A stretch of 40,591 nucleotides of DNA. Source: Pseudomonadota bacterium. Its GTDB lineage: Bacteria; Verrucomicrobiota; Verrucomicrobiia; Chthoniobacterales; UBA6821. The stretch spans positions 1-40,591 of the forward strand of contig RFPR01000001.1 in assembly GCA_009928265.1 (NCBI GenBank). Reading direction: 5' to 3'. Below the pieces are notes generated by a model. It saw nothing but the letters and a program-made list of their open reading frames with translations. It was not told where the DNA came from and made no database searches. Numbering within the stretch: the first letter of the stretch is position 1; every line of letters begins with the position of its first letter. This document shows, in pieces, positions 13,587 through 29,738 of this stretch. Made by a program: the position numbers and the translations under genes.

Positions 13587-13614
13587 AAAGATACAAACCT
13601 AGCAACCTTAGAAG

Positions 13615-13640: not shown

Positions 13641-13646
13641 GCTGCA

Positions 13647-13715: not shown

Positions 13716-13781
13716 CTCAGGTGGGTGGATTTGAACTTTCCGAGGTAAACCCGAGGAAACAACCAACAAATACACACCACC

Positions 13782-14168: not shown

Positions 14169-14190
14169 ATTTCAGTAGGCAAACAGAGAA

Positions 14191-14228
14191 CCCCCACCCC
14201 CTAAAAAGGGTGGGGGTTTTTCTCTTTT
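14191..14228 (+). terminator. rho-independent terminator
   Basis: CCCCCACCC-cctaaaaa-GGGTGGGGG followed by TTTTTCTCTTTT. Confidence 0.75.
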
Positions 14229-14263
14229 AATTCGGTCATCTCATACTGCAGAAACATCTAAAA

Positions 14264-14277
14264 TTATCTGCAGATAA
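14264..14277. repeat. perfect 14-bp palindrome TTATCTGCAGATAA (left of ankyrin cassette)
   Basis: Exact palindrome. An identical copy lies at 14680-14693, and both are preceded by A. Confidence 0.9.
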
Positions 14278-14319
14278 AGTCTACTTGAATTCGCTAACCA
14301 AATATCCCATATAATTAAG

Positions 14320-14676
14320 ATGAAAAGCTACTGGGATGAACGACTTATCAACGAGACTATAAAAGGAAAATTAGAAAGTGTTAAAGCATGCATTCAAAGG
14401 GGGGCTAATATTAACGCTCAAAATGATGCAGGAAACACTGCACTCCACTACACTGCACGATTCGGGCGTTTAAACATATGTAAGCTTCTCCTAGAAAAGG
14501 GGGCAGATGTTCATATTAAAAATATGAAAGGAGACACCCCATATGATATGGCAGAACAGGGATTAGTGGTGCCGATCCACATGGACATTCTGAAAATAGC
14601 TAATCTTCTCAAAGCTCACATTAAGAATAATATCTCAAAGAAGATTAGGGATAAACTTAACGATATCGAGATTTAA
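14320..14676 (+). CDS. ankyrin-repeat protein (118 aa, about 2-3 repeats)
   Basis: Canonical ANK signature NAGNTALHYTARFGRLNICKLLLEKGADVHIKNMKGDTPYDMA. Strongly AT-rich relative to neighbours. Confidence 0.8.
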   Translation: MKSYWDERLINETIKGKLESVKACIQRGANINAQNDAGNTALHYTARFGRLNICKLLLEKGADVHIKNMKGDTPYDMAEQGLVVPIHMDILKIANLLKAHIKNNISKKIRDKLNDIEI

Positions 14677-14679
14677 GGA

Positions 14680-14693
14680 TTATCTGCAGATAA
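14680..14693. repeat. perfect 14-bp palindrome TTATCTGCAGATAA (right of ankyrin cassette)
   Basis: Starts 4 nt after the ankyrin stop codon. Identical to 14264-14277. Confidence 0.9.
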
Positions 14694-14808
14694 GCCTCCA
14701 AAAAAAGGAGTGCCGGGGGACATGGATTCTGGGGCTAGCAAGCCAGCCACCGCGTCCTTCGACCCCGACACCCCAATAATTTTCGTGTGGAGCAATGAGA
14801 AAGTCAAG

Positions 14809-14891
14809 TTTTGCCTCCGTGCAGGCAAAACCCTGCCGGGCAACTTGGTGCCTCGGCAGACTCCCTCCGGCGGAATGAGGTGACAACCTCC
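14809..14891 (+). repeat. ~85-nt multi-hairpin element, copy C
   Basis: TTTTGCC-TCCGTGCA-GGCAAAA, then CTGCCG...CGGCAG, then CTCCGGCGGAATGAGG-tgacaa-CCTC. Aligns with 20628-20713 and 28679-28761. Confidence 0.7.
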
Positions 14892-14923
14892 TAAGCACCC
14901 CCATTGTCGATGGGGGTGCTCCC

Positions 14924-16480
14924 TTATATGTTCCCTGGTCGGGTCGGATCCTTCGACTTCGGTAGGGTCATCTCCACTTCCTTCGCTAGCTCTTTGGCTT
15001 TGGATTTCATCCCCGGCACAAGCTGCAGGGCATTTGCGAAATGATGACCCATCCCAGAAATGAGGCTCTTGAAGGAAGCCTTCAGATCCTTCAGGGCTTT
15101 CTCGGCTTTCTCCCTAAGGGTTTTCTCCTTTGCCAGCTCTGCCTCGGCAGATTCCTTCGCCTTCACGGCATCCTCGATCTTTGAAACGGCAGACTTGTTG
15201 ATCTGCTGCAGCTCCTCCTTGCTTTTGAGCAAATACTCTAGGTCGTCAGCTTGCTTATCAATTACAGCATCCTTCTCAGTAATCTGGACATCTTTTACCT
15301 CTATTTTCTCCTCCAAGGTCGCAACCAGGGTCTTCAACCCTTCCAGCTCGTTCGCTAGCTCTTTCTCTCGCTCGCTCTTCTCTCTGACCAGATCTTCGGC
15401 TTGCTCCAACTTCTCTGCTAGGGAAGATTTCGCATCCTCAACCACCTGCTCGGCACTCTTCTTCAGCCCCAGAAGCCTAGATTCGTACCCTCGCTTCAAC
15501 CAAGCCACATAGTCGGTCCGGGCTCGACTGGCATCGATAGGAGCTACCGCTGCCAGTTTGGAGTTCATAAAATCATCCAAGGCTCGATGTAACCGGACAT
15601 CTCGGAGCCCGTCCTTAGGGTGCCTCAGCTCCTCTTTCTCCTTGTTCCACTCCACCACCTTCACAACCTCGGCACACAACTCCTGAATTTTGCTCTTATC
15701 CCAGCCAGCGTCAGCCAAGGCCTCCATATGACGGATCCAGGCAATAGTGCCCGAGCCCACCCCATAGTTCCTAAAGGGTACCCTCTCCCGGGCATACCTC
15801 GGCTCCTTCTGCTTGGAAATGTTCTCGTCGGTAATCGTTATCCCGCAGTGCCAAAGGTCATCATGTGCTTGGCCTGCGTCATTATGCTCGCCAACAAACA
15901 GGACTTTTCGCCCATAAATTTCCTCGAATAACTCTATTTTCAGGGCTCGGGCTTCAGCCATAATCTGCTCAACCTCCCCCTTTCGCCCACTGGCGAGCAT
16001 ATACTGCAAAGCACGAGAATGATCGGGTCTTAGGTCAATCGTCTCTCGCTTGATGTCGCTCGCAGGGTACCTGCCTATCTCCTTGCCCTCGGCATCTAAT
16101 ACCCTCTCTCTCAACTTCTCCGTTTTCCAATACTTTCGCTTCTCATTCGGGGGGGAGTGGTAGTGGTCATAAAACTTCATCGACTCCGTCAACTCCCTCT
16201 CCCATCCCTGACCCTCAACCAGCTCAAGTGATCCACCCCCCAAGGTCGTCTGGACCCTCCGGTAATTCCTCCCAGCAGGTAATCCATTCTCCCCTAAACT
16301 CGACTGCAGAAACGAAGACTTAAACGGTGCATACTTCCCATCTGCTAACTCGTGATACACCCACCTACCCTTCTCTTTTTTATCCTGCAACAACTTAAAC
16401 ATCTTAACATCATCCCGATGTTTTTCGGAATTAGCGTTGCCGTGGGCTATCGATTGATAAGTGGCTCTGCCTCTCTTCAT
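14924..16480 (-). CDS. putative diverged Mob/Pre (MobV-like) relaxase with a long C-terminal coiled coil
   Basis: 518 aa. N-terminal ...SEKHRDD... and FVGEHNDAGQAHDDLWH loosely resemble MobV motifs HxxR and HxDE..PHxH. The C-terminal ~180 aa are Glu/Lys-rich heptad-like. The function call is weak; the ORF itself is solid. Confidence 0.4.
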   Translation of the reverse strand: MKRGRATYQSIAHGNANSEKHRDDVKMFKLLQDKKEKGRWVYHELADGKYAPFKSSFLQSSLGENGLPAGRNYRRVQTTLGGGSLELVEGQGWERELTESMKFYDHYHSPPNEKRKYWKTEKLRERVLDAEGKEIGRYPASDIKRETIDLRPDHSRALQYMLASGRKGEVEQIMAEARALKIELFEEIYGRKVLFVGEHNDAGQAHDDLWHCGITITDENISKQKEPRYARERVPFRNYGVGSGTIAWIRHMEALADAGWDKSKIQELCAEVVKVVEWNKEKEELRHPKDGLRDVRLHRALDDFMNSKLAAVAPIDASRARTDYVAWLKRGYESRLLGLKKSAEQVVEDAKSSLAEKLEQAEDLVREKSEREKELANELEGLKTLVATLEEKIEVKDVQITEKDAVIDKQADDLEYLLKSKEELQQINKSAVSKIEDAVKAKESAEAELAKEKTLREKAEKALKDLKASFKSLISGMGHHFANALQLVPGMKSKAKELAKEVEMTLPKSKDPTRPGNI

Positions 16481-16634
16481 ACTAATTTTGTGGTACCTTA
16501 TACCCCTAAAGTCAAGGGTTTTCGATCTTTAAAAGATCTCTTTTTCTACCAGTTTGTTTTAACTAACCTCTTTGTAGTAGTTTCAAGTGCAATGGCCGCC
16601 AAAATTCCTACGTCATTTTATCGGCCAATTGCAC

Positions 16635-16848
16635 GGGAAAGTTGCACTTTCCCCCGCCCGTCGGCGGTTCCCCCTGGGGGGAGTTCCTCCCCCGAATTCC
16701 AAAGCGAATTCCCCCCTGATTTTTAAGGGTGGGAAGCCCCTTAAAAAGTAGGCTTTTACAGAGTAAAAGCGGACATCTTGCCCCCAGTGCTGGGCAAGAA
16801 AGAAGCAGCCCGGGGGGCGTCTCCATGGGTCCCCAAATCCCCCATGGA
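16635..16848. other. cluster of seven perfect 6-9-bp stem-loops (candidate oriT / single-strand origin / structured RNA)
   Basis: Hairpins at 16635-16653, 16677-16693, 16694-16711, 16721-16746, 16752-16770, 16776-16799 and 16822-16848. Confidence 0.6.
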
Positions 16849-16890
16849 AGCCCTAAAAAGTCTCCCAGAAGCGACCTACTAGCTCCCTAG

Positions 16891-17159
16891 TGTCTCCTTT
16901 TAGCTACCTAAAGTGTCTCCTTCTGGATCCTTTCTACTCCCTCGAAAACACCCTACTTACTACCTAGTTAATACCTGTTGTATCTTACTTACTACCTACT
17001 TACTACCTATCTAATACCTACTGGATCCTAAAATCCGATATTGTATCTATCTTTCTACCTACTGTCTCCTTTTGTATCCTTTTTGATCTATTTTTCTCTC
17101 ATGGCTCCTATTGTCTCTAATTTTCTCTAATCTTCCTATAATAGATACGAATTGTATCT
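16891..17159. repeat. G-poor iteron-like array of short direct repeats
   Basis: TGTCTCCTT x3 (16891, 16914, 17063). CTTACTACCTA x3 (16956, 16988, 16999) plus variants. TTGTATCT x3 plus a variant (16978, 17041, 17152; 17072). TAATACCT x2. CTGGATCCT x2. Confidence 0.7.
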
Positions 17160-17165
17160 TTTTAC

Positions 17166-17194
17166 TTGACATGAGTTATTCCACTAACCATAAT
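17166..17194 (+). promoter_or_regulatory. sigma70-like promoter, TTGACA-17 nt-CATAAT, 7 nt before the ATG
   Basis: TTGACA at 17166-17171 and CATAAT at 17189-17194. ATG at 17202 implies a leaderless or near-leaderless mRNA. Confidence 0.5.
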
Positions 17195-17201
17195 AAAACT
17201 T

Positions 17202-17870
17202 ATGGAAAGTTCAATGGAAAATCTTAATAATTCGCGTTCTGAGGCGGGTAGGGAACTTAGTGATGATGAGTTGATTTACCGATATTGCGAGACTTACGGA
17301 ATCAAATCCAGGGGTGCTCTCGTCCCTCATGCACCCGCCGTTTTTATCATCTCGAGACTCGAGGGGATCCGAGGTTGTGCTAAATACTTCTCGGAAACTC
17401 TCAATACTAAAGTCACTAAAAAACAAGTAGAAGGGATTCTTTTCAAGATCCGAAATAAACTTGTTAATGTCACCGAGGGGGACCTTCGCCTAGCTGCTCA
17501 GGCTCACCCTCGTGCGATGGCATACTTCCGGATGTACCCAGCCGCCCTAAGTCCTATGGTGAAAATGGAAGACGAGGGAGAGCTGGATGAAGGGGAGCTA
17601 ACTGGTGGAAATCTAGCTGGTGGAGGCGTGGCTGTGACTCCTAAAGAAATCAAGGAGGCAGGGAAGGAAACCGCCGGGCAGGATGCTCTGGATGGGCAAG
17701 ATGGGCAGGATGGTGGAGGGGAGGCTAGGAAGCCTCGATCTGCAGGAACCTCTGCAGGAACCTCTGCACCATCTAACCCTCCAAAAAGCACCTCTAAAGC
17801 TAGTGAACTAGCGAGGAACTTTGGGCAGCATTTTGCGGCAGCTAGTAGGAAGTTGCCAGTTAGACCTTGA
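17202..17870 (+). CDS. hypothetical protein, paralog 1 (shared ~60-aa domain plus Gly/Asp/Gln and Ser/Ala/Gly/Thr low-complexity tail)
   Basis: YCETYGIKSRGALVPHAPAVFIISRLEGIRGCAKYFSETL...KKQVEGILFKIRNK aligns with 18112 gene FFETYGVRGKGVLLPFAAQVYVIARYGGIRAATDYFSKKL...KRPIEDILNKIKRG. Confidence 0.65.
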   Translation: MESSMENLNNSRSEAGRELSDDELIYRYCETYGIKSRGALVPHAPAVFIISRLEGIRGCAKYFSETLNTKVTKKQVEGILFKIRNKLVNVTEGDLRLAAQAHPRAMAYFRMYPAALSPMVKMEDEGELDEGELTGGNLAGGGVAVTPKEIKEAGKETAGQDALDGQDGQDGGGEARKPRSAGTSAGTSAPSNPPKSTSKASELARNFGQHFAAASRKLPVRP

Positions 17871-17930
17871 TTTATTTATACCAAATAATACACCTATTTC
17901 TGTAGTTTCAATATACAGAATGATCTAAAA

Positions 17931-17963
17931 AGAGGGGCGAACACCCCTCTTTTTTCTTTTTTT
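17931..17963 (+). terminator. rho-independent terminator
   Basis: AGAGGGG-cgaaca-CCCCTCT followed by a 13-nt T-rich run. Confidence 0.75.
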
Positions 17964-18077
17964 GATTTAAGAAAAAGATGTCCACCTTCATGCAATAAGG
18001 GGTAAGAATCTGAACTCACATACTGGCATCTTTTAAAACATGAAGTGACATATTGGAACAATTTACAATGATTTGTC

Positions 18078-18107
18078 TTGACATGTAGGGAGAATTAGTG
18101 ATAAGCT
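18078..18107 (+). promoter_or_regulatory. sigma70-like promoter, TTGACA-18 nt-TAAGCT, 4 nt before the ATG
   Basis: Shares CTTGACATG with the 17166 promoter. ATG at 18112. Confidence 0.4.
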
Positions 18108-18111
18108 TAGT

Positions 18112-18534
18112 ATGCAAGAAAATTCAGGATCCTCCGATTTAACTCCCAATCTAACTACTGGGTCGCCTTCAGTCGACCTATCTGCAGTTAAGGGTACGAG
18201 GTACAATAAGGACATTCCCACAGGGGATATCTCCGTCGAGGAGTTCTTTGAAACCTACGGGGTGCGTGGAAAGGGTGTCCTTCTACCCTTCGCAGCCCAG
18301 GTCTATGTTATCGCTCGCTATGGCGGGATAAGGGCCGCAACCGACTACTTCTCCAAGAAGCTCGGTAGGAAACTTAGTAAGCGTCCCATCGAAGATATCC
18401 TCAACAAGATCAAGCGGGGGGAAATAGTCCTCACCGAAGCAGAGATTCGAGAAGAGGCAAGCAAACATCCCTTTGCAGCCAAATTCTTCGAATGTGAGTT
18501 AGCTAGGTCGACGAAATTTTATGAGCCACTCTAA
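18112..18534 (+). CDS. hypothetical protein, paralog 2
   Basis: 140 aa. Conserved domain shared with the 17202 gene. Confidence 0.65.
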   Translation: MQENSGSSDLTPNLTTGSPSVDLSAVKGTRYNKDIPTGDISVEEFFETYGVRGKGVLLPFAAQVYVIARYGGIRAATDYFSKKLGRKLSKRPIEDILNKIKRGEIVLTEAEIREEASKHPFAAKFFECELARSTKFYEPL

Positions 18535-18606
18535 GCCCAACCCTACACAGGCACTCTCCAACGAGATTAAGCACATCCTTTAACAGCTAAGAATAAAACC
18601 CAATTT

Positions 18607-18966
18607 ATGAATACCATGAAAATAAAAGAAAACTACAGCCCAGAGGTACTAATAGCAGTAATTACCGCAATAGCATTAGCCGTGATTGCCTGTCTATTCT
18701 ACCTAAGTAACAAAGAAGATGAGCGCCTTTTGAAACAAGTTCTCAGTGAAAACCCACCTGAATTCTCCATCTCTGGAACAACTTCAATGTTGGAAATACA
18801 TATCACCAAAGAAGAAGAAATTCTAGGCAGAAAAGTAGTACTTAACCAAAGGACAATTAGCATCGCACCGGACAGATTGGAAAAACTGTGTAAATCACAG
18901 AAAATTTCCAAGAACACAGAGCAAAAGCTAATAAAACAACTAGCAACACTTAACGCTAAAAACTGA
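18607..18966 (+). CDS. hypothetical N-terminally membrane-anchored protein (AT-rich gene)
   Basis: 119 aa. TM helix VLIAVITAIALAVIACLFYL, then a Lys/Glu-rich region. Confidence 0.55.
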   Translation: MNTMKIKENYSPEVLIAVITAIALAVIACLFYLSNKEDERLLKQVLSENPPEFSISGTTSMLEIHITKEEEILGRKVVLNQRTISIAPDRLEKLCKSQKISKNTEQKLIKQLATLNAKN

Positions 18967-18982
18967 CGGAAGGCTTAACTTT

Positions 18983-19870
18983 ATGAAAAAACCATCAGAA
19001 AACATCCCAGAAAACGAAAGCAAACCCTTTCATAATGTTCTCTTTAGTGGGAACGACCGAGGGGGCGTAGGAAAAACCTTCAACAACACGCAACTCGGAG
19101 ATGCTCTGGAGGCTCTAGGCTACTCTGTCAACTTCGTCGACGCCGACCCGGGTAGTTCCTCCATGATCGGAATCGTTCCTTCCGCTAGGGTTGTTGATCC
19201 CAGTAAGGAGGAAGAGCTCGATCAGCTCTTCAGCGACATCGCCGAAGGTGATGCCGACCTTACCATCGTTGATTTAGGCGCCGGGACTACAGGTAGTAAC
19301 CTTGCAAAATACTTCGCCAATGGGGGCGATATCAGAGAACGCCTTGGAATCCGGGTCATCATCGGTATCTCGATCAACAGTGACCCAGAGGCAATCAAAT
19401 GCTCCATACCATGGATTGAAGGCTTATCCGAGGTCGGAGAGTTTATGACATTAGTAAGTCATGAAAAAACAATCCCATTTGACTTTAATAAACTTCCTGC
19501 AGGCGAAATCCTACTCGATATCTCTGAGAACAGGGTCATCCACTTCGCAAGACTTCCCGACAGGTTGCTCGAACACTACACCGCCAGGAAGGGCAAAGCT
19601 GCAGAATTCATCGAAGGGGGTGCTCTCGTCGACTACCTAGGGCTAAACATCTTCGAATCTGCAGCCTGGAATGTCTACCGAAACGACACAATTAACGGAG
19701 TTTACCCCTACGCCGAGTTTCTCACCGGGCGTAAAGCACCTAACCCACCAAAAGAGTACCCTCGCAAAGTTAAAGACGCCTCTAAAGAGAAGGAGAACAA
19801 AGCCAAGCTGATGCGGGAAAAAATCGCCGAAGCTCGTCGTAACCCCCTACCAGGTAGGGGAAAACGATAA
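18983..19870 (+). CDS. ParA/MinD-superfamily P-loop ATPase with Arg in place of the signature Lys
   Basis: LFSGNDRGGVGKT (deviant Walker A, KGGxxGKT with K to R), VNFVDADPG (A'), DLTIVDLGAG (Walker B), and a basic C-terminal tail. Confidence 0.65.
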   Translation: MKKPSENIPENESKPFHNVLFSGNDRGGVGKTFNNTQLGDALEALGYSVNFVDADPGSSSMIGIVPSARVVDPSKEEELDQLFSDIAEGDADLTIVDLGAGTTGSNLAKYFANGGDIRERLGIRVIIGISINSDPEAIKCSIPWIEGLSEVGEFMTLVSHEKTIPFDFNKLPAGEILLDISENRVIHFARLPDRLLEHYTARKGKAAEFIEGGALVDYLGLNIFESAAWNVYRNDTINGVYPYAEFLTGRKAPNPPKEYPRKVKDASKEKENKAKLMREKIAEARRNPLPGRGKR

Positions 19871-19907
19871 AACAAGCACCGCTCTAACTATAAGGGGTAA
19901 ACGATCC

Positions 19908-20591
19908 ATGTCCTACCGAGAACGATTCCTAGCTCTGTGCTCCCGTGACGAACGGGACGAGGCTGATCGTATGTGCGGGGGGTTATCCAATAACGATAAC
20001 AGCCCGCTATTCTGGGCTCTCCTGCAGATAAAACAACTCCCCTCGGCAATCGCTAAAGTCCTCGGCGACAATGTCGAAGCAATGCGGGAAATCAACCAGG
20101 GCAAGAAGGTCGCCCTCCTGCAGATCATCGCCTCACGGCTCTTCGCCGCAGTCATCCACGCAATCCTCGTCCTTGCTCTAGCACTCGGGGCGTTCGTGAT
20201 CATCACCAAAAAGCAGGAAGCTAGGCTGGGCACACTCGTCGAAAATAGCCGATCTCTCCTGCAGACCCAGAAGCAGCTAGCTGCAGATATGGCTACCTAC
20301 AAGGATGACCAAAGCGAACTCGGGCAAGGCGTGAAAACCATGTCAACACAGGTAAACTCCGCAGCAAAAGCAGCTAAAGATGAAATTCTCGCAGCCCGAG
20401 ATGCCTCCCTGAAAGACATCGAAAAGGGAGCCCAAGACTACAGAACCATCGCCAACCTTCTCAAATACTCGGGAGCCGGCGTCACCATCAACAGTCAGGG
20501 CGAACTCGTGCTCAAAACCTATAAATGGGGATACGAAATCGTGGATGACCCCACCCAAAACGGTGCCGTCACCATAATCCTCCACAAATGA
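19908..20591 (+). CDS. hypothetical membrane / coiled-coil protein
   Basis: 227 aa. One TM helix (LFAAVIHAILVLALALGAFVII), then a helical Gln/Lys/Ala-rich segment. Confidence 0.6.
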   Translation: MSYRERFLALCSRDERDEADRMCGGLSNNDNSPLFWALLQIKQLPSAIAKVLGDNVEAMREINQGKKVALLQIIASRLFAAVIHAILVLALALGAFVIITKKQEARLGTLVENSRSLLQTQKQLAADMATYKDDQSELGQGVKTMSTQVNSAAKAAKDEILAARDASLKDIEKGAQDYRTIANLLKYSGAGVTINSQGELVLKTYKWGYEIVDDPTQNGAVTIILHK

Positions 20592-20627
20592 CCAACCATG
20601 CTTCCTGCAGCTAAAGCCCACCCCAAA

Positions 20628-20713
20628 ATTTCGCTCCGTGCAGCGAAATCAGCCGCCGGAGCCGCTCGAGGCAACGGCAGGCTTCCCTCCGGCGGATGGA
20701 AGCAACGCCTTCC
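20628..20713 (+). repeat. ~85-nt multi-hairpin element, copy D
   Basis: ATTTCGC-TCCGTGCA-GCGAAAT, GCCG...CGGC, CTTCC-CTCCGGCGGAT-GGAAG-caacgc-CTTCC. Confidence 0.7.
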
Positions 20714-20851
20714 TGCACCCCTTTTAATCTCATGAAAACACCCAAGAAATCTCCACGGGTAGGACACTCTGTGTCTCCCAAACCTGCTAAGAAGAAGCTG
20801 CCAAATAAGCTCCCCAACCCCCCCAAAACAGCACACTCTCGTCATACACCT

Positions 20852-22633
20852 ATGCCTGAAGATTCCGCTCCCACCAAGATCAACTATGTCTCCCTTGTCT
20901 GGAGTATCGCAGAAATTCTGCGAGGTGACTTCAAGGCTCACCAGTACGGAGCAATCATCCTACCTTTCCTCGTGCTTCGTCGCTTGGAGTGCGTTCTCGA
21001 ACCTTCGCGGGCAAAGGTTCTCGATGCGTTGGCTTCCGTGCCAAAAGGTGCCGATGAGACAATTCGGGAGAAGCTCCTAAACCGTGCCTCCGGACATAAG
21101 TTCTCCAACACCAGCAAGTGGACCTTGGAGAAGATCAAGGGTGACCAAGCCCATCTCCTTGCCAACCTGAATGCCTATGTGAACGGCTTCTCGGCAAATG
21201 TACGGGATGTCCTCATCGACAAGTTCAAGTTCCCAACCCTTCTCGAAGCTCTGGACAAGGCGGATCTCCTCTACTCCCTAGTCGACAAGTTCGCCCAGGT
21301 GGATCTCCACCCAGACAGGGTCTCCAATATGGAGATGGGTTCCATCTTCGAGGAGCTCATCCGACGATTCGCTGAAGTCAGCAATGAAACGGCTGGAGAG
21401 CACTTCACCCCGAGGGATGTCGTGGAGCTTCTGGTCGATGTTCTCTTCATCTTCGACTCGGAAGTCCTCACCAAGAAGGGAGTTGTCCGTTCGATCTACG
21501 ATCCCACCGCAGGCACCGGGGGAATTCTCTCCGTCGCCCAAGAGGCTCTTCGCAAGCTCAACCCGGACGCTCAGCTAGTCCTCTTCGGACAAGAACTCAA
21601 CCCTGAATCCTACGCCATCTGTAAGAGCGATCTCATGATCAAGGGGCAGGATCCCGACAACATCGGCTTCGGAAACACCCTCAACGACGACAAGCACGAA
21701 GACCTTCAAGTCGACTACATGGGGGCAAACCCTCCGTATGGCGTGGACTGGGGAAAGATCAAGGATGACATCGAGGACGAACACGAGAAGCTCGGAATGA
21801 CTGGACGATTCGGTCCAGGTCTTCCTCGCGTCTCCGACGGTTCCCTTCTCTTCGTCCTGCAGATGATTTCCAAAATGAAGGACCCTGCCAAGGGCGAGGG
21901 GTCAAGGATCGCAGTAGTCTTGAGCGGATCCCCGCTCTTCACGGGCGGTGCAGGATCAGGAGAGTCGGAAATCCGCAGATACATCCTCGAGAATGACCTG
22001 CTGGAGACCATCATCGCTCTCCCCAGCTCCCTCTTCTACAACACCGGAATTGGCACCTACATTTGGGTCCTCTCCAACAAGAAGACCAAGGAACGCAAGG
22101 GCAAGGTGCAGCTCATCAACGCTGCAGAGATGTTTATCCCTATGAGAAAGAGCCTCGGGGACAAACGCAGGGAGATGACACCAGAACACCGCAAGGAAAT
22201 CCTCCGACTCATGGGTGAGTTCGACGAGTCACCCATCTCGAAAATCTTCAACTCAACCGATTTCGGCTACCGCCGAATCACTGTTGAACGCCCCTTGCTC
22301 GATGAGAAAGGTAAACCAGTCATCGGCACCAAGGGGAAGATGAAGGGCAAGCCCCTTCCCAATGCCGACTTGCGAGACACCGAGAATGTCCCCCTCACGG
22401 AATCGGTCGAGGAGTACTTCAAGCGTGAGGTCCTCCCTCATGTCCCCGATGCCTACATCGACAGCGAGAAGCGTGATGAACGGGACGGCGAGGCCGGGGT
22501 GGTTGGCTACGAGATCAACTTCAACCGCTATTTCTACCAGTTCACTCCTCCTAGAAAACTCGAAGATGTCCGAAAGGATGTCCGGGCGAAGGAACAAGCC
22601 ATCCTCAAACTCTTGGAGGACATCGGAGCATGA
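20852..22633 (+). CDS. hsdM: type I restriction-modification DNA methyltransferase subunit M
   Basis: HsdM N-domain (LVWSIAEILRGDFKAHQYGAIILPFLVLRRLE), SAM motif DPTAGTGGIL, catalytic GANPPYG. ATG 20852 preferred. Upstream in-frame ATGs at 20696 and 20732 would add a Lys/Pro-rich tail and overlap repeat copy D. Confidence 0.9.
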   Translation: MPEDSAPTKINYVSLVWSIAEILRGDFKAHQYGAIILPFLVLRRLECVLEPSRAKVLDALASVPKGADETIREKLLNRASGHKFSNTSKWTLEKIKGDQAHLLANLNAYVNGFSANVRDVLIDKFKFPTLLEALDKADLLYSLVDKFAQVDLHPDRVSNMEMGSIFEELIRRFAEVSNETAGEHFTPRDVVELLVDVLFIFDSEVLTKKGVVRSIYDPTAGTGGILSVAQEALRKLNPDAQLVLFGQELNPESYAICKSDLMIKGQDPDNIGFGNTLNDDKHEDLQVDYMGANPPYGVDWGKIKDDIEDEHEKLGMTGRFGPGLPRVSDGSLLFVLQMISKMKDPAKGEGSRIAVVLSGSPLFTGGAGSGESEIRRYILENDLLETIIALPSSLFYNTGIGTYIWVLSNKKTKERKGKVQLINAAEMFIPMRKSLGDKRREMTPEHRKEILRLMGEFDESPISKIFNSTDFGYRRITVERPLLDEKGKPVIGTKGKMKGKPLPNADLRDTENVPLTESVEEYFKREVLPHVPDAYIDSEKRDERDGEAGVVGYEINFNRYFYQFTPPRKLEDVRKDVRAKEQAILKLLEDIGA

Positions 22634-23901
22634 GCAGGGAGTTCAAGCCATACCCCAAGTACAAGGACTCGGGGGTAGAGTGGCTCGGGCAGGTTCCGGA
22701 AGGATGGGAGGTAACACCTCTCAAAAGAGCTGTCAGGCAAAGTGCCGATAAGTCAACTGACGGGTCCCTTCAGTACCTAGGGCTGGAAAATATCCTGCCA
22801 TGGACAGGCGTTATCACTACCGACTCTGATGCCAAATATTCAGACGACAGCTTGGGAATCGAGTTCCTAGAGGGAGATGTGCTCTTTGGGAAACTTCGCC
22901 CATACCTTGCGAAGGTAGCTCTGCCCTCATTTAACGGGCGATGCACCTCTGAGCTTTTGGTGCTTCGCCCAGAAAAACTAGATGGGAAATACCTCCGCTA
23001 TTTCCTCTCAACTCCTGGATTCATCGACCGGGTCAACTCAACGACATTCGGGGCACAAATGCCCCGAGCAAATTGGGAATCCATCGGGGGGTTACACACT
23101 CTGATTCCGGAGGATAAAGGCAAAGCCATTGCATCCTTCCTCGATCAGCAAACTTCGCAGATCGACGAGGTGATCAAAGCTACGGAGGAATCCATCGCTC
23201 TCCTACAGGAAGAGCGGAAAAGCATCATCTCCCATGCAGTCACCAAGGGACTAGATCCCAAGGTCAAACTCAAGGACTCGGGTATCGAGTGGCTCGGACA
23301 GATTCCGGAGCACTGGGAGGCCAAGAAGACAAGTTGGTATTTTACTGCTAAGAAGGGGAAGAACGCGGCACAGCTTACCAAGGAATACTGTGCAACGATT
23401 AGTGGGGACTACCCCGTCTACAGCGGGCAGACTGAAAATAACGGAGTGATGAGCAGCATCACCGAATACGAATTTGATGCGGGAGAGGACGGATGCCTCT
23501 TCTCCACAACGGTAGGCAGCCAAAAGGTCATGACCGTGATGCACATTAAGGGCAGATTCAGCCTATCACAGAACTGCATGATTATGCTCCCTACACAACG
23601 GGCTATTAATGTCAGGTACGCATTCTATCACTTTCAGCCTTTGTTTGAGTACGAGAAGAGCTTCATCCCATCCCACATGCAGGCTTCATTCCGTATGGAA
23701 GACTTCTACCAATACAGGTTAGCCCTTCCTCCTCTCGCAGAGCAGGAAGCCATCTCCTCCTACCTAGACGAGAAGACTAAGCGGATCGACTCACTCATCG
23801 CTGAAAAGGGGTCGCTCATCGAATCCCTCAGGGAGTATCGCAGCAGTCTGATCTTCGAAGCGGTAACCGGAAAAATCGACCTTCGGGAGGAAGCTGCATG
23901 A
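22630..23901 (+). CDS. hsdS: type I R-M specificity subunit S (two target-recognition domains)
   Basis: Duplicated YKDSGVEWLGQVPEGWE / LKDSGIEWLGQIPEHWE half-starts. Conserved helical spacers LQEERKSIISHAVTKGLD and LREYRSSLIFEAVTGKIDL. ATGA overlap with hsdM. Confidence 0.9.
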   Translation: MSREFKPYPKYKDSGVEWLGQVPEGWEVTPLKRAVRQSADKSTDGSLQYLGLENILPWTGVITTDSDAKYSDDSLGIEFLEGDVLFGKLRPYLAKVALPSFNGRCTSELLVLRPEKLDGKYLRYFLSTPGFIDRVNSTTFGAQMPRANWESIGGLHTLIPEDKGKAIASFLDQQTSQIDEVIKATEESIALLQEERKSIISHAVTKGLDPKVKLKDSGIEWLGQIPEHWEAKKTSWYFTAKKGKNAAQLTKEYCATISGDYPVYSGQTENNGVMSSITEYEFDAGEDGCLFSTTVGSQKVMTVMHIKGRFSLSQNCMIMLPTQRAINVRYAFYHFQPLFEYEKSFIPSHMQASFRMEDFYQYRLALPPLAEQEAISSYLDEKTKRIDSLIAEKGSLIESLREYRSSLIFEAVTGKIDLREEAA

Positions 23902-23941
23902 TCGCACTTCTCTTCGCACTAAAAGCGGGGATAACCAACTT

Positions 23942-26900
23942 ATGAGCACGCCAATTCACAAAGAGAAAAAGTTCGAGGAGGAGATCGAAGCAGTCCTCCT
24001 CAGCCGCAAGGGTGGTTACCTGCAGGGAAATCCCAAGAACTTCGATCCACGGCTCGGCTTTGATTGCACCGAACTGTTCACCTTCCTGAAAGGGACGCAG
24101 CCGAAGGAGTGGGCGAAGCTTGAGAAGAGCTACGGCGGCGAAGTGGAAGCCAAGGTTTCCTCCTACCTCCGCAGTGAGATCAACCGCAAGGGAACCATCG
24201 AAGTACTTCGTCAGGGCATCGTCGACCGGGGAGCCAAGCTCACTCTTGCCTTCATGCCTCCTTCCTCAGGTCTCAATCCTGTAGTGATCGAACAGTACAA
24301 AAGCAACAGGCTCACAATCACTCGGCAGGTTCCTTGCACAGTCGGGTCGAAGGAAACCATCGACACCGTTCTCATGGTCAACGGCATCCCAGTCGTTACC
24401 GTTGAACTCAAGACTCCGCTCACCGGACAAACCGTCACCAACGCAGTCTTTCAGTACAAAGACAGGGACCCCAATTCCCCCATCTTCGGCTTCAAGTCGG
24501 GTGCACTTGTGCACATGGCTGTCGATCCGGATGAGGTGATGATGACCACCAAGCTCGACAAGAAAGGGACTCGCTTCCTCCCATTCAACAAAGGCGACAA
24601 GGGAGGGAAGGGGAATCCTGAAAACCCCAAGGGCTACAAAACAGCGTACCTCTGGGAAGAGGTTCTGCAAAGGGATAGCCTCATGGACATCCTTGCCAAG
24701 TTCGTTCAGTCACAGACTGAGACGAAGCGTCTGCCCAACGGCTCCAAGGTCAAAGTCGAGAAGCTACTCTTCCCTAGGTATCACCAACTCGATTGCGTCC
24801 GTAAGTGCGCATCGCACGCTGCAGAGCACGGAGCAGGTCAAACCTACCTCATCCAGCACTCGGCAGGTTCGGGGAAGACCAATTCCATTGCCTGGCTCGC
24901 CCATAGGCTCACCACTCTCCACAACGCGAAGGACGAAACAGTCTTCGACAGCGTCATCGTTGTTACCGATCGAATCGTCCTCGATGACCAGCTGCAGGAC
25001 GCCATCGCCCAATTCGAGCACAAGCACGGAGTGGTTGAAGCCATCAAGGGAAGCGAGGGCTCCAAGAGTGCGAAGCTCGCTGAAGCCCTTACTGGCGGGA
25101 AGAAGATCATCATCGTCACCATTCAGTCCTTCGGGTTTGTCCTTGAGCAGATCGGATCCATCCCTAACCGCAGGTATGCCGTTATCGTGGACGAAGCCCA
25201 CTCCTCGCAGACCGGAGAGTCGGCTACAAAGATGCGACAGGCACTTGGATCCTCGGATGAAGACCTAGCTGCTGCAGCTAAGGAGCAGGAGGAAGAGGAC
25301 AAGAAGGCTGAAGCCAAGGACGATGAAACGGACGCAGCCGTCCTCAAAGTTCTCAAGGCTCGCAAGCGTCAGCCCAACATGAGTTTCTTCGGCTTCACGG
25401 CTACGCCCAAAGCCAAAACCCTCGAATACTTCGGCACAGTTGGTAAGGACAGAAAGCCTCACCCGTTTCACCTGTACTCCATGCGACAGGCGATTGAGGA
25501 AGGATTCATCCTCGATGTCCTGAAGAACTACACCACCTACGAAACCTACTGGCGTCTCGCCTCTTCCAATTCAGTAGATCCGGAAGTCGAGAAGAAGAAA
25601 GCTTCACGAGCGGCTGTTCGCTATGTGCAGCTCCACCCCTACAACATCGCTCAGAAGGTCGAGATCATCCTAGAGCACTATGTGAACTTCACCTCCAAGC
25701 AGATCGGAGGGAAGGCGAAGGCGATGGTTGTTACCAGCAGTCGCAAAGCTGCAGTCAGGTACAAAGAGGCATTCGACAAGATCCTCGTCAAAAAGAAGAT
25801 CAAAGGTGTCAAAGCCATCGTTGCCTTCTCCGGGGAAGTCCAAGACGAGGGGAAGAGTCACACCGAGCAGAGCATGAACGGCTTCTCCGGTCGTCAGATC
25901 CCAGAGAAGTTCGAGTCGGATGAGTACCAAGTCCTCCTGGTTGCCGACAAATTCCAAACAGGCTTCGATCAGCCTTATCTGCACACTCTCTTTGTCGACA
26001 AGCGCCTCGACGGCGTTCAGGCGGTGCAGACCCTCTCCCGGGTCAATCGTACCTGCCCCCTTAAGGAAGACACCTTCGTTTTGGACTTCGTCAACAACGC
26101 CGACGACATCAAGAAAGCCTTCCTGCCGTACTACCAGGCAACGGAAGTCTCGGAAGTCACCGATCCCAATGTGCTCTATCGGCTCAAGGATCAGATCATG
26201 GATCGAGGTATCATCAACAAGGATGACATCGAGGGGGTTGCCAAGATCGCCTTCAAACCTGCAGGAGAAGCCGGGGCAAACGACCAAGGCAAGATTCATG
26301 CCCTCATCGACCCAGCAGTTACTCGTTACAAAGAGAAGCTGGATGAATCTGAGCAACGCGAGTTCGCCGGCGATCTCCAATCCTTCCTTCGCACCTACGC
26401 ATTCCTCGCTCAGCTCATCGACTTTGAAGATACGGACCTTGAAAAACTCTACGCCTACGGGAAGTTCCTCGCTCGAAAACTCCCAAGGACCCAAGGACGC
26501 AACCTCACCCTCGACGATGAAGTTCGGCTTACCTTCTACCGCACCCAGAAGGTGTTTGAAGGTAGCCTCTCCCTTGGAGCAACAGACGCCGGGACCGTAA
26601 AAGGTATCGGTGATGCTCCCAAGAAAGGCGGTGCTGGTGGAACGGTCGTTCGCCTCTCCACCATTATCGATGTCCTCAACCAACGATTCGGTGCTGACCT
26701 CTCCCAAGAAGACCAGCTCCTCTTCGATGCCATCGAGGGGGACATGGCGAGAGACCATGAACTCCGTACCCAAGCTCTCAACAACGATCTGAAAAACTTC
26801 GCCTTCCCAGCCAAGGAGAAGATCAGCGGTGCATTCCTAGAACGGACCGAGAAAAACCAAGGGCTATTCACTCGCTACCTCGCAGATGAGGCCTTCCGCA

Positions 26901-26980
26901 ATGTGATCGAGCAAGTAATGGCTCAATCCCTCTATGACCGCCTCCGCAGAGAAGCCGGGGAAGCTGAGAAGATCGCATGA
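23942..26980 (+). CDS. hsdR: type I restriction endonuclease subunit R
   Basis: 1012 aa. N-terminal nuclease-type region, helicase motif I QHSAGSGKT, motif II VIVDEAHSSQ, later SF2 motifs (FGFTATP, LLVADKFQTGFDQP, RVNR). Confidence 0.9.
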   Translation: MSTPIHKEKKFEEEIEAVLLSRKGGYLQGNPKNFDPRLGFDCTELFTFLKGTQPKEWAKLEKSYGGEVEAKVSSYLRSEINRKGTIEVLRQGIVDRGAKLTLAFMPPSSGLNPVVIEQYKSNRLTITRQVPCTVGSKETIDTVLMVNGIPVVTVELKTPLTGQTVTNAVFQYKDRDPNSPIFGFKSGALVHMAVDPDEVMMTTKLDKKGTRFLPFNKGDKGGKGNPENPKGYKTAYLWEEVLQRDSLMDILAKFVQSQTETKRLPNGSKVKVEKLLFPRYHQLDCVRKCASHAAEHGAGQTYLIQHSAGSGKTNSIAWLAHRLTTLHNAKDETVFDSVIVVTDRIVLDDQLQDAIAQFEHKHGVVEAIKGSEGSKSAKLAEALTGGKKIIIVTIQSFGFVLEQIGSIPNRRYAVIVDEAHSSQTGESATKMRQALGSSDEDLAAAAKEQEEEDKKAEAKDDETDAAVLKVLKARKRQPNMSFFGFTATPKAKTLEYFGTVGKDRKPHPFHLYSMRQAIEEGFILDVLKNYTTYETYWRLASSNSVDPEVEKKKASRAAVRYVQLHPYNIAQKVEIILEHYVNFTSKQIGGKAKAMVVTSSRKAAVRYKEAFDKILVKKKIKGVKAIVAFSGEVQDEGKSHTEQSMNGFSGRQIPEKFESDEYQVLLVADKFQTGFDQPYLHTLFVDKRLDGVQAVQTLSRVNRTCPLKEDTFVLDFVNNADDIKKAFLPYYQATEVSEVTDPNVLYRLKDQIMDRGIINKDDIEGVAKIAFKPAGEAGANDQGKIHALIDPAVTRYKEKLDESEQREFAGDLQSFLRTYAFLAQLIDFEDTDLEKLYAYGKFLARKLPRTQGRNLTLDDEVRLTFYRTQKVFEGSLSLGATDAGTVKGIGDAPKKGGAGGTVVRLSTIIDVLNQRFGADLSQEDQLLFDAIEGDMARDHELRTQALNNDLKNFAFPAKEKISGAFLERTEKNQGLFTRYLADEAFRNVIEQVMAQSLYDRLRREAGEAEKIA

Positions 26981-27717
26981 ACATTTCACTGCTATGCGAT
27001 GAGCTTTGGGATAATGCCCAGCCTCTGATGTCGGAGGCTTGGGGGAGCATGGATCCACAGCATCCAGGACATGACCCGGGAGAAGCTGCACGCCGAGAAT
27101 TTAGGGGTGCCCAGATCAACGAACGCTTACTGGTGCTACTCAAAGAGGAGGGGGACGATCTCCCAGAGGGAGTTCGCCTCATAACCAATATCTCCAACTC
27201 TGCAGAAGAGATCACAAAGGCACTACAAGCCGAAGAATACGAAGGTTGGAACAGAACTCTTAACTCGCCCACGCAGTTCCAAGATCAACAGCACAAGCTG
27301 CATCTATGGGCTGAAAACAACTACACACCTCTAGAGGGATCCGATGTTACTCCCAGAAATCTCGCGGGGATCCTCGGGTTGAACAAAGGAAGCCTCAACT
27401 ATCTGCAGGTAGATGGGGGAACTGCTTCGCTTTTCGCCATTGCTTCAAAAAGGACAGGTGTCACGACAGGTCAGTTTGTCCACGACACAAACCTAGAAGC
27501 CCTCCTGAAATCATTCAGAATCGAGGTTCTTCGGAGGGATGTCATATCGGCGAATACGGTCACCAATGCGGCAATAGATGCTCTCTGGGGTAATGTCGTC
27601 GAAACCAGATACACCGACCAGATTGATGCTATGGAGCGACAGATAAGAACCAAGGAGAGGGAGATCGCCGAAATCAAAGAGCGGATCTCCCTTGTGAAAG
27701 CCCTGAAAAAATCATGA
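26977..27717 (+). CDS. hypothetical protein translationally coupled to hsdR (246 aa, C-terminal coiled coil)
   Basis: ATGA overlap with the hsdR stop at 26977-26980. No recognisable motif. Confidence 0.65.
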   Translation: MNISLLCDELWDNAQPLMSEAWGSMDPQHPGHDPGEAARREFRGAQINERLLVLLKEEGDDLPEGVRLITNISNSAEEITKALQAEEYEGWNRTLNSPTQFQDQQHKLHLWAENNYTPLEGSDVTPRNLAGILGLNKGSLNYLQVDGGTASLFAIASKRTGVTTGQFVHDTNLEALLKSFRIEVLRRDVISANTVTNAAIDALWGNVVETRYTDQIDAMERQIRTKEREIAEIKERISLVKALKKS

Positions 27718-27917
27718 AGGAAGTCCTGAACTCTCGGTGGTTCCACTGCCTCTACCTCGGAATGCTCAGCTTGGGCACGATCACTCTGGTTTGTATGAAC
27801 ATCGTTCACGAAGCTTCTTTCCCTGTCTGGGTTGCATCCGCCGCAATATGGGTTGCACCATGCTACCTCGCTTATTGTGCAGTGCGATTCCTCCGCAGTA
27901 ATAAGGCAGAAGGGTAA
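27714..27917 (+). CDS. small two-TM membrane protein (67 aa) coupled to the preceding gene
   Basis: ATGA overlap at 27714-27717. Two hydrophobic helices (LYLGMLSLGTITLVCMNIV; VWVASAAIWVAPCYLAYCAV). Confidence 0.55.
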   Translation: MKEVLNSRWFHCLYLGMLSLGTITLVCMNIVHEASFPVWVASAAIWVAPCYLAYCAVRFLRSNKAEG

Positions 27918-27989
27918 GCAGCGTCAGCTCTTCTACCCCGCCTTCCAACTTTGCGAGGGGAGAGCTGCTAAACCTTACGCAGCTAGGAA

Positions 27990-28451
27990 TTAGACTGCAG
28001 GGACGGGCAGGTCGGAGTTGATGTATTTCTCGTAGCCGTATTTATCAACGCCCTCTGGACGGGGTAGAGCATACCTCCGCTTGTACTCATCGTTAGGTCC
28101 GAAAAAGTACATCGCTCCATCAATCTCTACAGATAAGCAAATCTGACCGAACTCGATTGCGAGGCTATTCGCCATGCGGTTGATGTTCCACTTGTGTTCA
28201 TCGAGTTTTTCCTCCGAACAAAAGGATTTGCAGATGGTCACCTTCTCGGCATGAACAATCCCTGCTTCGTGGAAGTAACCAGCTCCCTCCGTCATTGTCG
28301 CTCCGCCCAACTCCAGCAGAAGGAATTTCATCGTTGCGTCAATAAGCTTGGCACGATCGACATGCCCGAGGTCTTCCCCCTTACCTGTTTTCGAGGGAAG
28401 GTAGAAGGCAACGTAGTGATCCATCTCCTTTTTGGGTTTCCAATAAGCCAT
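27990..28451 (-). CDS. hypothetical protein (about 153 aa)
   Basis: The ORF opens at 28487. The internal ATG at 28451 (MAYWKPKKEM...) is preferred because the upstream part runs into repeat-rich DNA. No motif recognised. Confidence 0.55.
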   Translation of the reverse strand: MAYWKPKKEMDHYVAFYLPSKTGKGEDLGHVDRAKLIDATMKFLLLELGGATMTEGAGYFHEAGIVHAEKVTICKSFCSEEKLDEHKWNINRMANSLAIEFGQICLSVEIDGAMYFFGPNDEYKRRYALPRPEGVDKYGYEKYINSDLPVPAV

Positions 28452-28678
28452 GCCACGGAGCGTAGGACATGAAACTGCAGGGATCAATCCCGCAGGCGTC
28501 GGCTATTCCCTCCTTCCCAAACCCTGTCGGGAGCAGCCTCCACATCACCGCAGGGGGCACCAAGGACTCGCTAGGTTTCCTCACTTCCTCCTGCAGTCAC
28601 CGGCTCTCGCCTTCGTGCTGTCGTCCCTCCGACGAGCTATTTCCCCTTAACGGTGCCCATTCTCGGGACTATCTGCAG

Positions 28679-28761
28679 GTTTGCCTCCGTGCAGGCAAAC
28701 CTATTGCCGCCTTGCTTGCCAAGTGCGGCAAACATCCCCCCGGCGGGATGGAGGCAACTCC
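28679..28761 (+). repeat. ~85-nt multi-hairpin element, copy E
   Basis: GTTTGCC-TCCGTGCA-GGCAAAC, TTGCCGC-CTTG...CAAG-GCGGCAA, CATCC-CCCCGGCG-GGATG, GGAG-gcaa-CTCC. Confidence 0.7.
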
Positions 28762-28816
28762 GTTGATTCCTGAACTCTTCCTTCCCTAGGAAGGGTTCAC
28801 CCCTCCCTACCTGATC

Positions 28817-28924
28817 TTGCGAAAACGGGTACTTTCTCTCGACACCCCGCAGGAACACCTTCCTCCTCTAACAAAATTGCGAAAGTCATTTCGTAATTCC
28901 GATACCCTCAGCCCACTTTCGCAA
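28817..28924. promoter_or_regulatory. three TTGCGAAA half-sites upstream of the serine recombinase (two form an inverted repeat)
   Basis: TTGCGAAAAC at 28817, TTGCGAAAGT at 28877, inverted ACTTTCGCAA at 28915. Confidence 0.4.
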
Positions 28925-28967
28925 ATCTCACCTTGCCCTCGGCGGTCATCGACTGGAAAAGCTTGGG

Positions 28968-29540
28968 ATGAAGATAGGATACGCACGAGTTAGCACGAAG
29001 GATCAGGACACAACAGCTCAGGAAGAAGCCCTTAAAGCTGCAGGGTGTGAAAAGATATACCATGAGATCGCTTCAGGCGGGAAATGGGAGAGGAAGGAAC
29101 TACACCGAATGCTCGACATGCTCAGACCAGGGGATGTCGTCATTGTCTGGAAGTTGGACAGGCTCTCCAGATCGTTGCGGGACCTCCTCTCAATCATCGA
29201 CACCTTCGCCAAACTCGATGTCGGCTTCGTCAGCCTCACGGAATCGGTGGATACGACATCAGCAGCAGGTCGGATGCTCCTCCAAATCATCGGCTCCTTC
29301 GGGGAATTCGAGAGAAACCTCATCCGTGAGAGGACCTATGCAGGTATCGCTAGAGCCAAGGCTCTAGGCAAGCATCTCGGTAGACCTTCCAAGCTCTCAG
29401 CTGAACAACGGGCTGAGGTCCTCCGTAGCATCAAGGCAGGAGAGAAGTCTCAGGCAGAATGGGCTCGCCTGTTCAATGTCGCCCCCTCGGCAATTTCTCG
29501 GCTCGTCGCCAAGGAGGCACTCACAAAACTTCTGAAGTGA
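28968..29540 (+). CDS. small serine recombinase (resolvase/invertase family)
   Basis: MKIGYARVSTKDQ catalytic-Ser motif, DVVIVWKLDRLSRS, GEFERNLIRERT, C-terminal HTH (SQAEWARLFNVAPSAISRL). Confidence 0.9.
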   Translation: MKIGYARVSTKDQDTTAQEEALKAAGCEKIYHEIASGGKWERKELHRMLDMLRPGDVVIVWKLDRLSRSLRDLLSIIDTFAKLDVGFVSLTESVDTTSAAGRMLLQIIGSFGEFERNLIRERTYAGIARAKALGKHLGRPSKLSAEQRAEVLRSIKAGEKSQAEWARLFNVAPSAISRLVAKEALTKLLK

Positions 29541-29543
29541 TTC

Positions 29544-29738
29544 CTAGGTGCGTCTCTTACTAGGAATAAGGAGCAGAGGCAGGTTCACGACCGCCACAAC
29601 CGCAGTCCAAATCAGCACAGCAGCTACACCAATGATCCCAGCGGCTATCTGGATCAGCCCAATCAGGAAATTGACCACTCCCTTCAGGAGCCAAGTCACC
29701 AAGAACACGCCCAATAGAAGTTCAATGGCAAGGCTCAT
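29544..29738 (-). CDS. small two-TM hydrophobic protein (64 aa) coupled to the integrase gene
   Basis: Start overlaps the integrase stop (ATGA on the minus strand). Almost entirely hydrophobic, with a basic C-terminus SKRRT. Confidence 0.45.
   Translation of the reverse strand: MSLAIELLLGVFLVTWLLKGVVNFLIGLIQIAAGIIGVAAVLIWTAVVAVVNLPLLLIPSKRRT

Follow-up and report, generated by a model that had tools for sequence, protein, structure and literature searches.

A repeated multi-hairpin element at the module junctions of a tRNA-Leu-inserted mobile island and its relatives

HK022 put is an example of a processive-antitermination RNA. Terminators, insulators and antiterminators acting at the RNA level are known in integrative elements and in phages, the terminator and antiterminator of Tn916 among them; they are structured, act in cis at the entry or exit of long operons and control read-through (PMC11658703). 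T4-like phages carry repeated promoter/terminator stem-loop cassettes at the exchange points of their variable genes (PMC4122927); these PeSL cassettes are short units that share one orientation, stand at variable-gene borders, and mark where indels and replacements begin and end (PMC4122927, PMC2839356). The single-strand origins sso1 of ICEBs1 and sso of pBAA1 are orientation-specific regions of ~100-200 nt with at least three stem-loops, in which structure is conserved over sequence and redundant copies are possible (PMC4595007). The attC sites of integrons are also repeated in a single orientation at the borders of gene modules, with structure weighing more than sequence, and may act as folded single strands. 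Here we describe a repeated element of ~95 nt that shares traits with all of these, found in a stretch of 40,591 nucleotides of contig RFPR01000001.1 (assembly GCA_009928265.1), which we call the window.

The window contains a mobile island of 18.6 kb that is inserted at a tRNA-Leu gene and limited by 28-nt direct repeats (12465-12492 and 31084-31111), the repeated sequence being the 3’ end of tRNA-Leu(CAA). Three copies of the element, named C, D and E, lie within it (Table 1), and four further copies were found in two related islands from metagenomes, three in L062 and one, of type D, in L059, so that the family consists of seven distinct copies in three islands. The element is a structured motif outside the described families, which is well supported, and the general kind, a repeated structured unit at the module junctions of a mobile element, is known. 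Against Rfam 15, only tRNA-Leu was found at the gathering threshold, and a scan of the island by E-value gave nothing on the plus strand over the copies; the sole overlap was a minus-strand match to Clostridiales-2 at 14860-14941, with 19 bits against a cut-off of 58.6 and E = 1.8. The view that no named RNA family is involved therefore holds at gathering and relaxed thresholds alike.

As in the PeSL cassettes, indels and replacements have coinciding end points here, at D, C and E. However, PeSLs consist of a simple terminator stem-loop with a recognisable early promoter and number tens of copies per phage, whereas the present unit comprises four or five hairpins, keeps its loop and core invariant, occurs in one to three copies in an integrated island, and has no recognised promoter in or beside it. 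With single-strand origins it shares no sequence similarity, no Rep or relaxase is recognised in the island and, unlike those origins, it is tied to gene starts and terminator-like hairpins. The likeness to the antitermination and insulator RNAs of integrative elements and phages lies in the role proposed below; there is no sequence or structural homology to them, the family of the element is absent from Rfam, and copy C has nothing downstream to express. Finally, attC is one long imperfect hairpin with R’’/L’’-L’/R’ boxes and a GTTRRRY core, found beside an IntI integrase and an array of single-gene cassettes. The attC-like character suggested in the earlier note fails here, as the element folds into three to five separate hairpins rather than a single long inverted repeat; its 5’ end, GTTTGCC, misfits GTTRRRY, neither border has such a core, and the intervals between copies carry six to seven genes, maintenance genes among them, instead of a single-gene cassette array.

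Each copy begins with hairpin 1, a 9-bp stem that includes invariant C-G and U-A closing pairs and carries the loop CCGUGC, followed by the longer, imperfect hairpin 2, the C-rich/G-rich core CCGGCGG in all window copies and, after the core, a short hairpin formed by a purine run and a pyrimidine run. The three window copies align over ~95 nt with a mean column identity of 74%. A covariance model built from them scores the copies at 88-106 bits, the next best match in the 40.6-kb window reaching 16 bits (both strands, filters off), and a second search of the window with a seven-copy model had the same outcome; overall, the scores of the three copies span 81-106 bits. Two weak matches (16 bits) were rejected: one at 13610-13708, which is part of a second repeat family, and one at 16773-16840, which is not conserved as such in L062. 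Searched by themselves with one mismatch allowed, the three short motifs of the element stay at chance level (3 found against 2.5-3 expected), so the evidence for the element is the full-length match together with the pairing. Nor does a coding explanation hold, since the copies differ by indels whose lengths are not divisible by three, and the D copy of L059 and the E copy of L062 have no ATG in the core.

Most of what the earlier note had read from the letters was borne out. Sequence reading, alignment and the covariance model agree on the places of its three same-strand copies, and the window has no others; every copy forms hairpin 1, copy D does show the GC-to-CG double swap, and hairpin 2 has the closing pairs that had been proposed. 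Of the longer core that it described, CCGGCGG stands in all three copies, and the ‘RATG’ tail is shifted by one base in D (GGCGGATGG). As the note had it, the purine strand after the core has both an upstream and a downstream partner available in the window copies; the switch it saw in this was rejected as a conserved feature, since over the seven copies the upstream alternative is not kept, its energy varying from -15.6 kcal/mol in window D to -2.9 kcal/mol in the D copy of L059, where it is essentially absent, and being weak in the E copy of L062.

Table 1. Positions of the element copies and associated features in the window. L057, L059, L062 and L102 are other islands.
Feature	Position	Strand	Description
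Copy C	14809-14891	+	model extent 14805-14900; 106 bits; syntenic L062:4654-4751
Fifth hairpin after copy C	14895-14919	+	GCACCCCCAT tgtcg ATGGGGGTGC, then UCCCUUAUAUGUU; 12-bp stem, minimum-free-energy fold
CTGCAG near copy D	20605-20610	.	18 nt upstream of D
Copy D	20628-20713	+	model extent 20624-20722; 97 bits; syntenic L062:10052-10149, L059:2118-2214
Short related motif	28606-28636	+	GCCTTCGTGCTG ... CCCTCCGACGAG, upstream of E
CTGCAG abutting copy E	28673-28678	.	within ACTATCTGCAGG; left edge of indel relative to L057
Copy E	28679-28761	+	model extent 28675-28770; 88 bits; syntenic L062:17148-17243
Palindromic hairpin after copy E	28772-28798	+	GAACTCTTCCTTCCCTAGGAAGGGTTC; kept in L062, L059, L102

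The fold is under selection, and its stems are kept by compensating mutations. On a model-guided alignment of the seven copies, restricted to the 18 pairs of hairpins 1 and 2, standard pairs occupy 94.4% of the cells, and 12 of the 18 pairs have changed on both sides with pairing kept; none of 500 shuffles reaches any of the main measures, and in controls in which the 3’ partners were slid by one to three columns only 28-46% of the cells pair. The sequence of hairpin 2 is almost unrecognisable among window C, L062 C and L059 D, and its pairing is retained. Unchanging across the seven copies are the hairpin-1 sequence CUCCGUGCAG and the C-rich/G-rich core CCNCCGGNGG; the 3’ part of the element is less regular than hairpins 1 and 2. 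Complete copies, the additional hairpin described below included, fold far better than shuffled sequences (z from -4.5 to -6.4). The argument from covariation for a selected structure, first made on three copies, thus gains strong compensatory variation in both hairpins across seven.

The family is real yet narrow. L062 is an 18-kb contig that was found through its resolvase and ParA, the closest homologues of those in the window; it has the same gene order, its proteins are 50-84% identical, and it carries three copies of the element at the same three syntenic places as the window. The second related island, L059/L060, has type III restriction-modification (R-M) cargo and a single copy before this cargo (10.9 kb of L059 covered). 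All four of these copies were reached via neighbouring proteins only. The further homologues by which the earlier note had proposed to judge its claim do exist, and the three-copy layout at module boundaries that it described is kept in L062. No copy is present in the more distant islands of similar overall build, searched with filters off (L057, L061, L063, L092-L099, L101 and L102), which were reached through homologues of a 518-aa island protein, ParA and the resolvase, and of which L099 carries MmeI-type cargo. Scans with a pattern of the hairpin-1 sequence and core over IMG/VR, GTDB with one genome per species (185,579 genomes) and JGI metagenome contigs gave only matches that inspection or model score showed to be due to chance; BLAST with the element found no match in plasmid and phage collections, and a literature search for the loop sequence returned unrelated primer sequences only.

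The positions of the copies are conserved, and all seven are on the coding strand of the surrounding operons. Copy C is downstream of an ankyrin open reading frame (ORF) and convergent with the 518-aa ORF, and in L062 it lies between the terminator of a 128-aa gene and the convergent 518-aa gene. Copy D stands between the ORF of the ParA partner (stop at 20591) and the start of hsdM (ATG at 20732), abuts the hsdM ATG in L062, and in all three islands falls within or at the 5’ leader of the gene that opens the cargo. Copy E occupies a divergent intergenic region, with the serine recombinase ORF 207 nt downstream, and is upstream of the recombinase in L062 too. Between C and D are the 518-aa ORF, a block of iteron-like repeats and the ParA-like gene with its partner, and between D and E are hsdM/S/R and three unknown ORFs. 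This is the gene content that the earlier note had given, except that its label ‘mob’ for the 518-aa ORF finds no family, sequence or fold match to back it.

The copies sit at module junctions, and copy D is a true mosaic junction. Its left neighbours in the three islands are the 227-aa ParA partner, a second ParA paralogue and a 161-aa ORF, and its right side is type I or type III R-M cargo. The element, the leader and the first ~16 codons stay constant across these differing cargo genes: a shared start peptide, MK[T/S/P]PKKSPRVGH[S/L]VSP, is encoded with synonymous differences at 20732-20785 in the window, L062:10141-10190 and L059:2256-2305, and the gene behind the conserved leader and codons is hsdM in the window and in L062 but a type III helicase/res gene in L059. 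According to some gene callers, hsdM starts 40 codons later.

A strong extra hairpin, the fifth, is present directly 3’ of five of the seven copies, the other two being the D copies of the window and L062. The counterparts of the window C hairpin have other stem sequences: GCACCCCCC..GGGGGTGC, then TTTCTTATATG, after L062 C, and GCACCTAC..GTAGGTGC after L059 D, between the element and the cargo gene. In all three the hairpin starts with GCACC and ends with GGUGC, and the middle covaries. A U-rich tail follows the hairpin of the C copies on the plus strand only, reading GGGGGUGCUUUCUUAUAUGUUU in L062, and L059 D is without one. The combination of a GC-rich hairpin and a U tract that characterises an intrinsic terminator is seen after L062 C, is borderline after window C, and is lacking after L059 D and the E copies. 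The C copies carry terminator-like hairpins on the plus strand, and judging by their sequence these look like plus-strand terminators.

Our preferred reading, held tentatively and at less than even confidence, is that the element works as plus-strand RNA, a module that in cis, where operons meet, would be a conditional terminator, leader or insulator, and that it would double as a module-exchange junction. The element would be transcribed within the plus-strand operons of the island and act where transcription crosses module borders: C closes the left operon, past which read-through transcripts would run antisense to the 518-aa gene; D separates the partition operon from the R-M cargo; and E precedes the promoter/operator region of the recombinase. 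The folded platform and the fifth hairpin would together form the conditional terminator, leader or insulator, or possibly an RNA-stability element, to be read by RNA polymerase or another factor. A unit of ~95 nt recurring at junctions would, as a by-product, supply homology for exchanging modules. We favour this reading because of the covariation, the coding-strand orientation of all copies and the better-than-shuffle folds; because of the terminator-like hairpins of the C copies, the covarying counterpart after L059 D and the position of D in cargo leaders; and because other mobile elements offer precedents (PMC11658703, PMC4122927). That the element is transcribed, on which strand it acts, that it terminates transcription or serves as a leader, and that a factor in trans takes part are inferences.

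Several observations weigh against this reading. No shared promoter was found upstream of the copies. The C copy of L062 has a strong terminator on its upstream side and its own hairpin behind it; placed in this way between two terminators, it would be poorly transcribed unless the 75 nt between them hold a weak promoter. The fifth hairpin of the E type has no U tract, and copy D of the window and of L062 does without the hairpin altogether. The alignment behind the pair counts was fitted to the model, which favours structure, and the seven copies come from only three related islands, so that orthologous copies share ancestry and are not independent. The wobble pairs, from which an assignment of the strand was tried, gave no decision, with two G.U cells on the plus strand and about three A.C cells at helix ends that would be G.U on the minus strand; in stability, the folds of the minus strand equal or surpass those of the plus strand.

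The main rival is that the element is a single-stranded-DNA priming site of the sso/ssi kind, which we consider conceivable though improbable. The folded plus strand would start synthesis of the complementary strand, using host RNA polymerase or primase, during rolling-circle replication or single-strand transfer of the excised island, and spaced copies would be redundant. The copies share one strand and are fairly evenly spaced on an 18.6-kb circle (5.8, 8.1 and ~4.7 kb), the bracketing of L062 C by terminators leaves an RNA role less obvious there, and an invariant loop on covarying stems fits recognition of a folded single strand. Known single-strand origins show the same orientation specificity, multiple stem-loops, primacy of structure over sequence and redundancy (PMC4595007). 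However, neither a rolling-circle Rep nor a relaxase is identified, and the 518-aa protein is without homology or fold match, so that single-stranded intermediates are only assumed; L059 has a single copy in the 10.9 kb covered; and the tie to gene starts, leaders and terminator-like hairpins is not something that priming requires. Single-strand origins of the ssoA type have a conserved RSB region and a terminal loop, CS-6, with the motif TAGCGT. This motif is absent from the copies, whose loops are CCGUGC and variable sequences.

Doubtful, in our estimate, is the explanation of the element as a recombination junction with an adjacent CTGCAG-centred site, at which modules would be inserted, excised or swapped by a site-specific enzyme or by homologous recombination. 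The mosaic at D, which parts variable left neighbours from variable cargo in three islands, is what such a junction would leave, and copy E points the same way. E and its palindrome form a block of ~150 nt that is missing from the otherwise homologous region of L057, where 14 unrelated bases stand instead; this indel begins exactly at ATCTGCAG, and L059 and L102 have a different hairpin at the E position. The right edge of the indel, however, lacks a matching site, and no target is duplicated. A CTGCAG is present at most 25 nt upstream of five of the seven copies, against ~0.06 expected per copy, but it lies anywhere between 0 and 18 nt from hairpin 1. The hexamer is enriched about eight-fold in exactly the three islands that carry the element. 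It is the commonest of the island in the window (12493-31111), with 38 sites or 2.04/kb, compared with three sites in the 22 kb of flanking chromosome and ~11 expected for the whole window. It occurs at ~1.65/kb in L062 and L059, cargo genes included, and at 0-0.57/kb in related islands without the element; within genes it falls in frames 0 and 1 only, and it has no extended consensus.

The same explanation draws on a 14-bp palindrome, TTATCTGCAGATAA, of which two perfect copies (14264-14277 and 14680-14693) bracket the ankyrin ORF (14320-14676). This gene lies between the 128-aa gene and C in the window and is absent from L062, where versions of the palindrome with one or two mismatches stand directly before the C and E copies (4637-4650 and 17137-17150); from its sequence context, the ankyrin gene looks like a cassette inserted at a palindromic site. 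The hairpin-2 sequences of C and D in L062 are near-identical and unlike their window orthologues, while the E copies of the two islands are alike, and the likeness of L062 C and D suggests conversion between copies within that island. Against a junction of this type, the compensatory stem changes speak against a protein-binding site in double-stranded DNA, the hairpin arms share no half-site, C to D with its maintenance genes would be an implausible cassette, and the features of attC are lacking. A res or crossover site in particular was rejected: the hairpin arms have no half-site consensus, compensatory changes occur even within one island, and two of the three window copies are far from the recombinase. 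Better candidates are three palindromic TTGCGAAA/TTTCGCAA motifs (28817-28824, 28877-28896 and 28917-28924), which lie between E and the serine recombinase. They are conserved in L062, L057, L059 and L102, including loci without the element, and the first gene after them elsewhere is GT87 (L057), a 78-aa ORF (L102) or a methyltransferase (L059); from this arrangement, the region is likely an operator or res-like.

A further possibility, to which we also give little credence, is that the element is the folded recognition platform of an undescribed system specific to these islands. As an RNA with tertiary structure, it might sense a factor or ligand and thereby gate transcription between modules; or a folded single strand and the adjacent CTGCAG-centred palindromes might together carry out a new kind of cassette exchange. 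On this view the island-wide CTGCAG enrichment in exactly the three islands with the element would belong to the same system.

That the element is a stand-alone small RNA gene, or a riboswitch- or ribozyme-like RNA, with C and its terminator as the intact form and D and E as fused derivatives, seems unlikely to us. Both C copies and L059 D form compact units, 115-130 nt long and closed by a terminator-like hairpin, and an invariant unpaired loop (CCGUGC) and core (CCNCCGGNGG), covarying stems and a possible loop-core pairing typify RNAs with tertiary structure. In every copy loop 1 (CUCCG) is able to pair with the core (CGGMG). These columns are invariant, however, and the sole hint of such a pairing, which we regard as possible, is a matching double change in the short motif upstream of E, where the loop is UUCG and the core CCGACG. 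This motif, kept in L062 and L057, has hairpin-1-like and core-like sequences and no hairpin 2, and may be a relative of the element. Against a small RNA gene it counts that no promoter is recognised, that the family is very rare, and that it is unlike any Rfam ribozyme or riboswitch.

Least credible is a selfish or neutral small repeat of the MITE (miniature inverted-repeat transposable element) or REP (repetitive extragenic palindromic) type, which would do nothing for the island and whose hairpins would be kept only for its own spread: several copies per island and a polymorphism of presence and absence (E missing in L057; no copies in L099, L061, L063 and L092-L096) would suit it, but there are no terminal inverted repeats or target duplications, an HUH or RAYT transposase is missing from the window, the 22 kb of flanking chromosome and all the scanned collections are free of copies, and the same three positions in two islands whose proteins are only 50-84% identical indicate retention instead of recent spread. 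The REP-like alternative in the earlier note falls with the zero copies in those 22 kb, the part of the source chromosome scanned outside the island, and the want of any real one among the GTDB species genomes and JGI metagenomes. A MITE was rejected likewise, as neither terminal inverted repeats nor duplications are found in the flanks of the seven copies, and the filled (window, L062) and empty (L057) sites differ by a replacement of 150 nt with 14 nt, without duplication.

If the element gates transcription, it would show how a small island insulates its maintenance genes, defence cargo and recombination genes from one another, and how various R-M systems can be joined, through one conserved junction, to a constant leader and a constant first 16 codons. 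Should it instead be a single-strand origin or a recombination site, it would tell how this island family, with no recognisable Rep or relaxase and with uncultured bacteria as hosts, replicates or swaps its cargo. In either case the element is a new structured motif that can be synthesised directly, and its link to CTGCAG is a second handle on the biology of the islands.

The order of the island is, from the left, small ORFs without assigned role, the ankyrin ORF, copy C and the convergent 518-aa ORF (14924-16480, minus strand); then the iteron-like block, two paralogous ORFs without assigned role, the ParA-like ATPase with its partner and copy D; and, on the right, hsdM/hsdS/hsdR with the three unknown ORFs, copy E, the 190-aa serine recombinase and a tyrosine recombinase, which is at the far end and adjoins the tRNA att repeat. 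Several homologues of the island proteins carry the label Verrucomicrobia. The 518-aa protein has no match in Pfam, NCBIfam or PDB sequences and no Foldseek fold match in PDB or BFVD; its AlphaFold model has a mean pLDDT (predicted local distance difference test) of 78.6, and an invariant H199-x-D-x4-H206-x-D-x-W-H211 and a long C-terminal coiled coil are shared by its 18 homologues.

A protein of ~485 aa with RRXRR and HNH domains, an IscB-like set, is encoded at L062:126-1580 and L061:5341-6810, and the island of the window has no such gene. The iteron-like block, between the 518-aa ORF and ORF 17202, occupies 16935-17076 and consists of CTTACTTACTACCTA and variants at 11-nt spacing; a near-consensus sigma-70 promoter is found at 17166-17194. 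Before the ankyrin ORF, the sequence reads TTGAAT, a 19-nt spacer and TATAAT ending 4 nt 5’ of the ATG (14296-14322), which suggests that this ORF has its own promoter and a leaderless mRNA. The second repeat family occurs at 12655-12729 and 13650-13715, upstream of ORFs 12747 and 13782, with the pattern GGGCAA.CCGGGCAA ... CCCGTTAAAGGC ... GGCTTTCGCC.AGCCCC.CACGG, and its copy at 13650-13715 is kept in L062.

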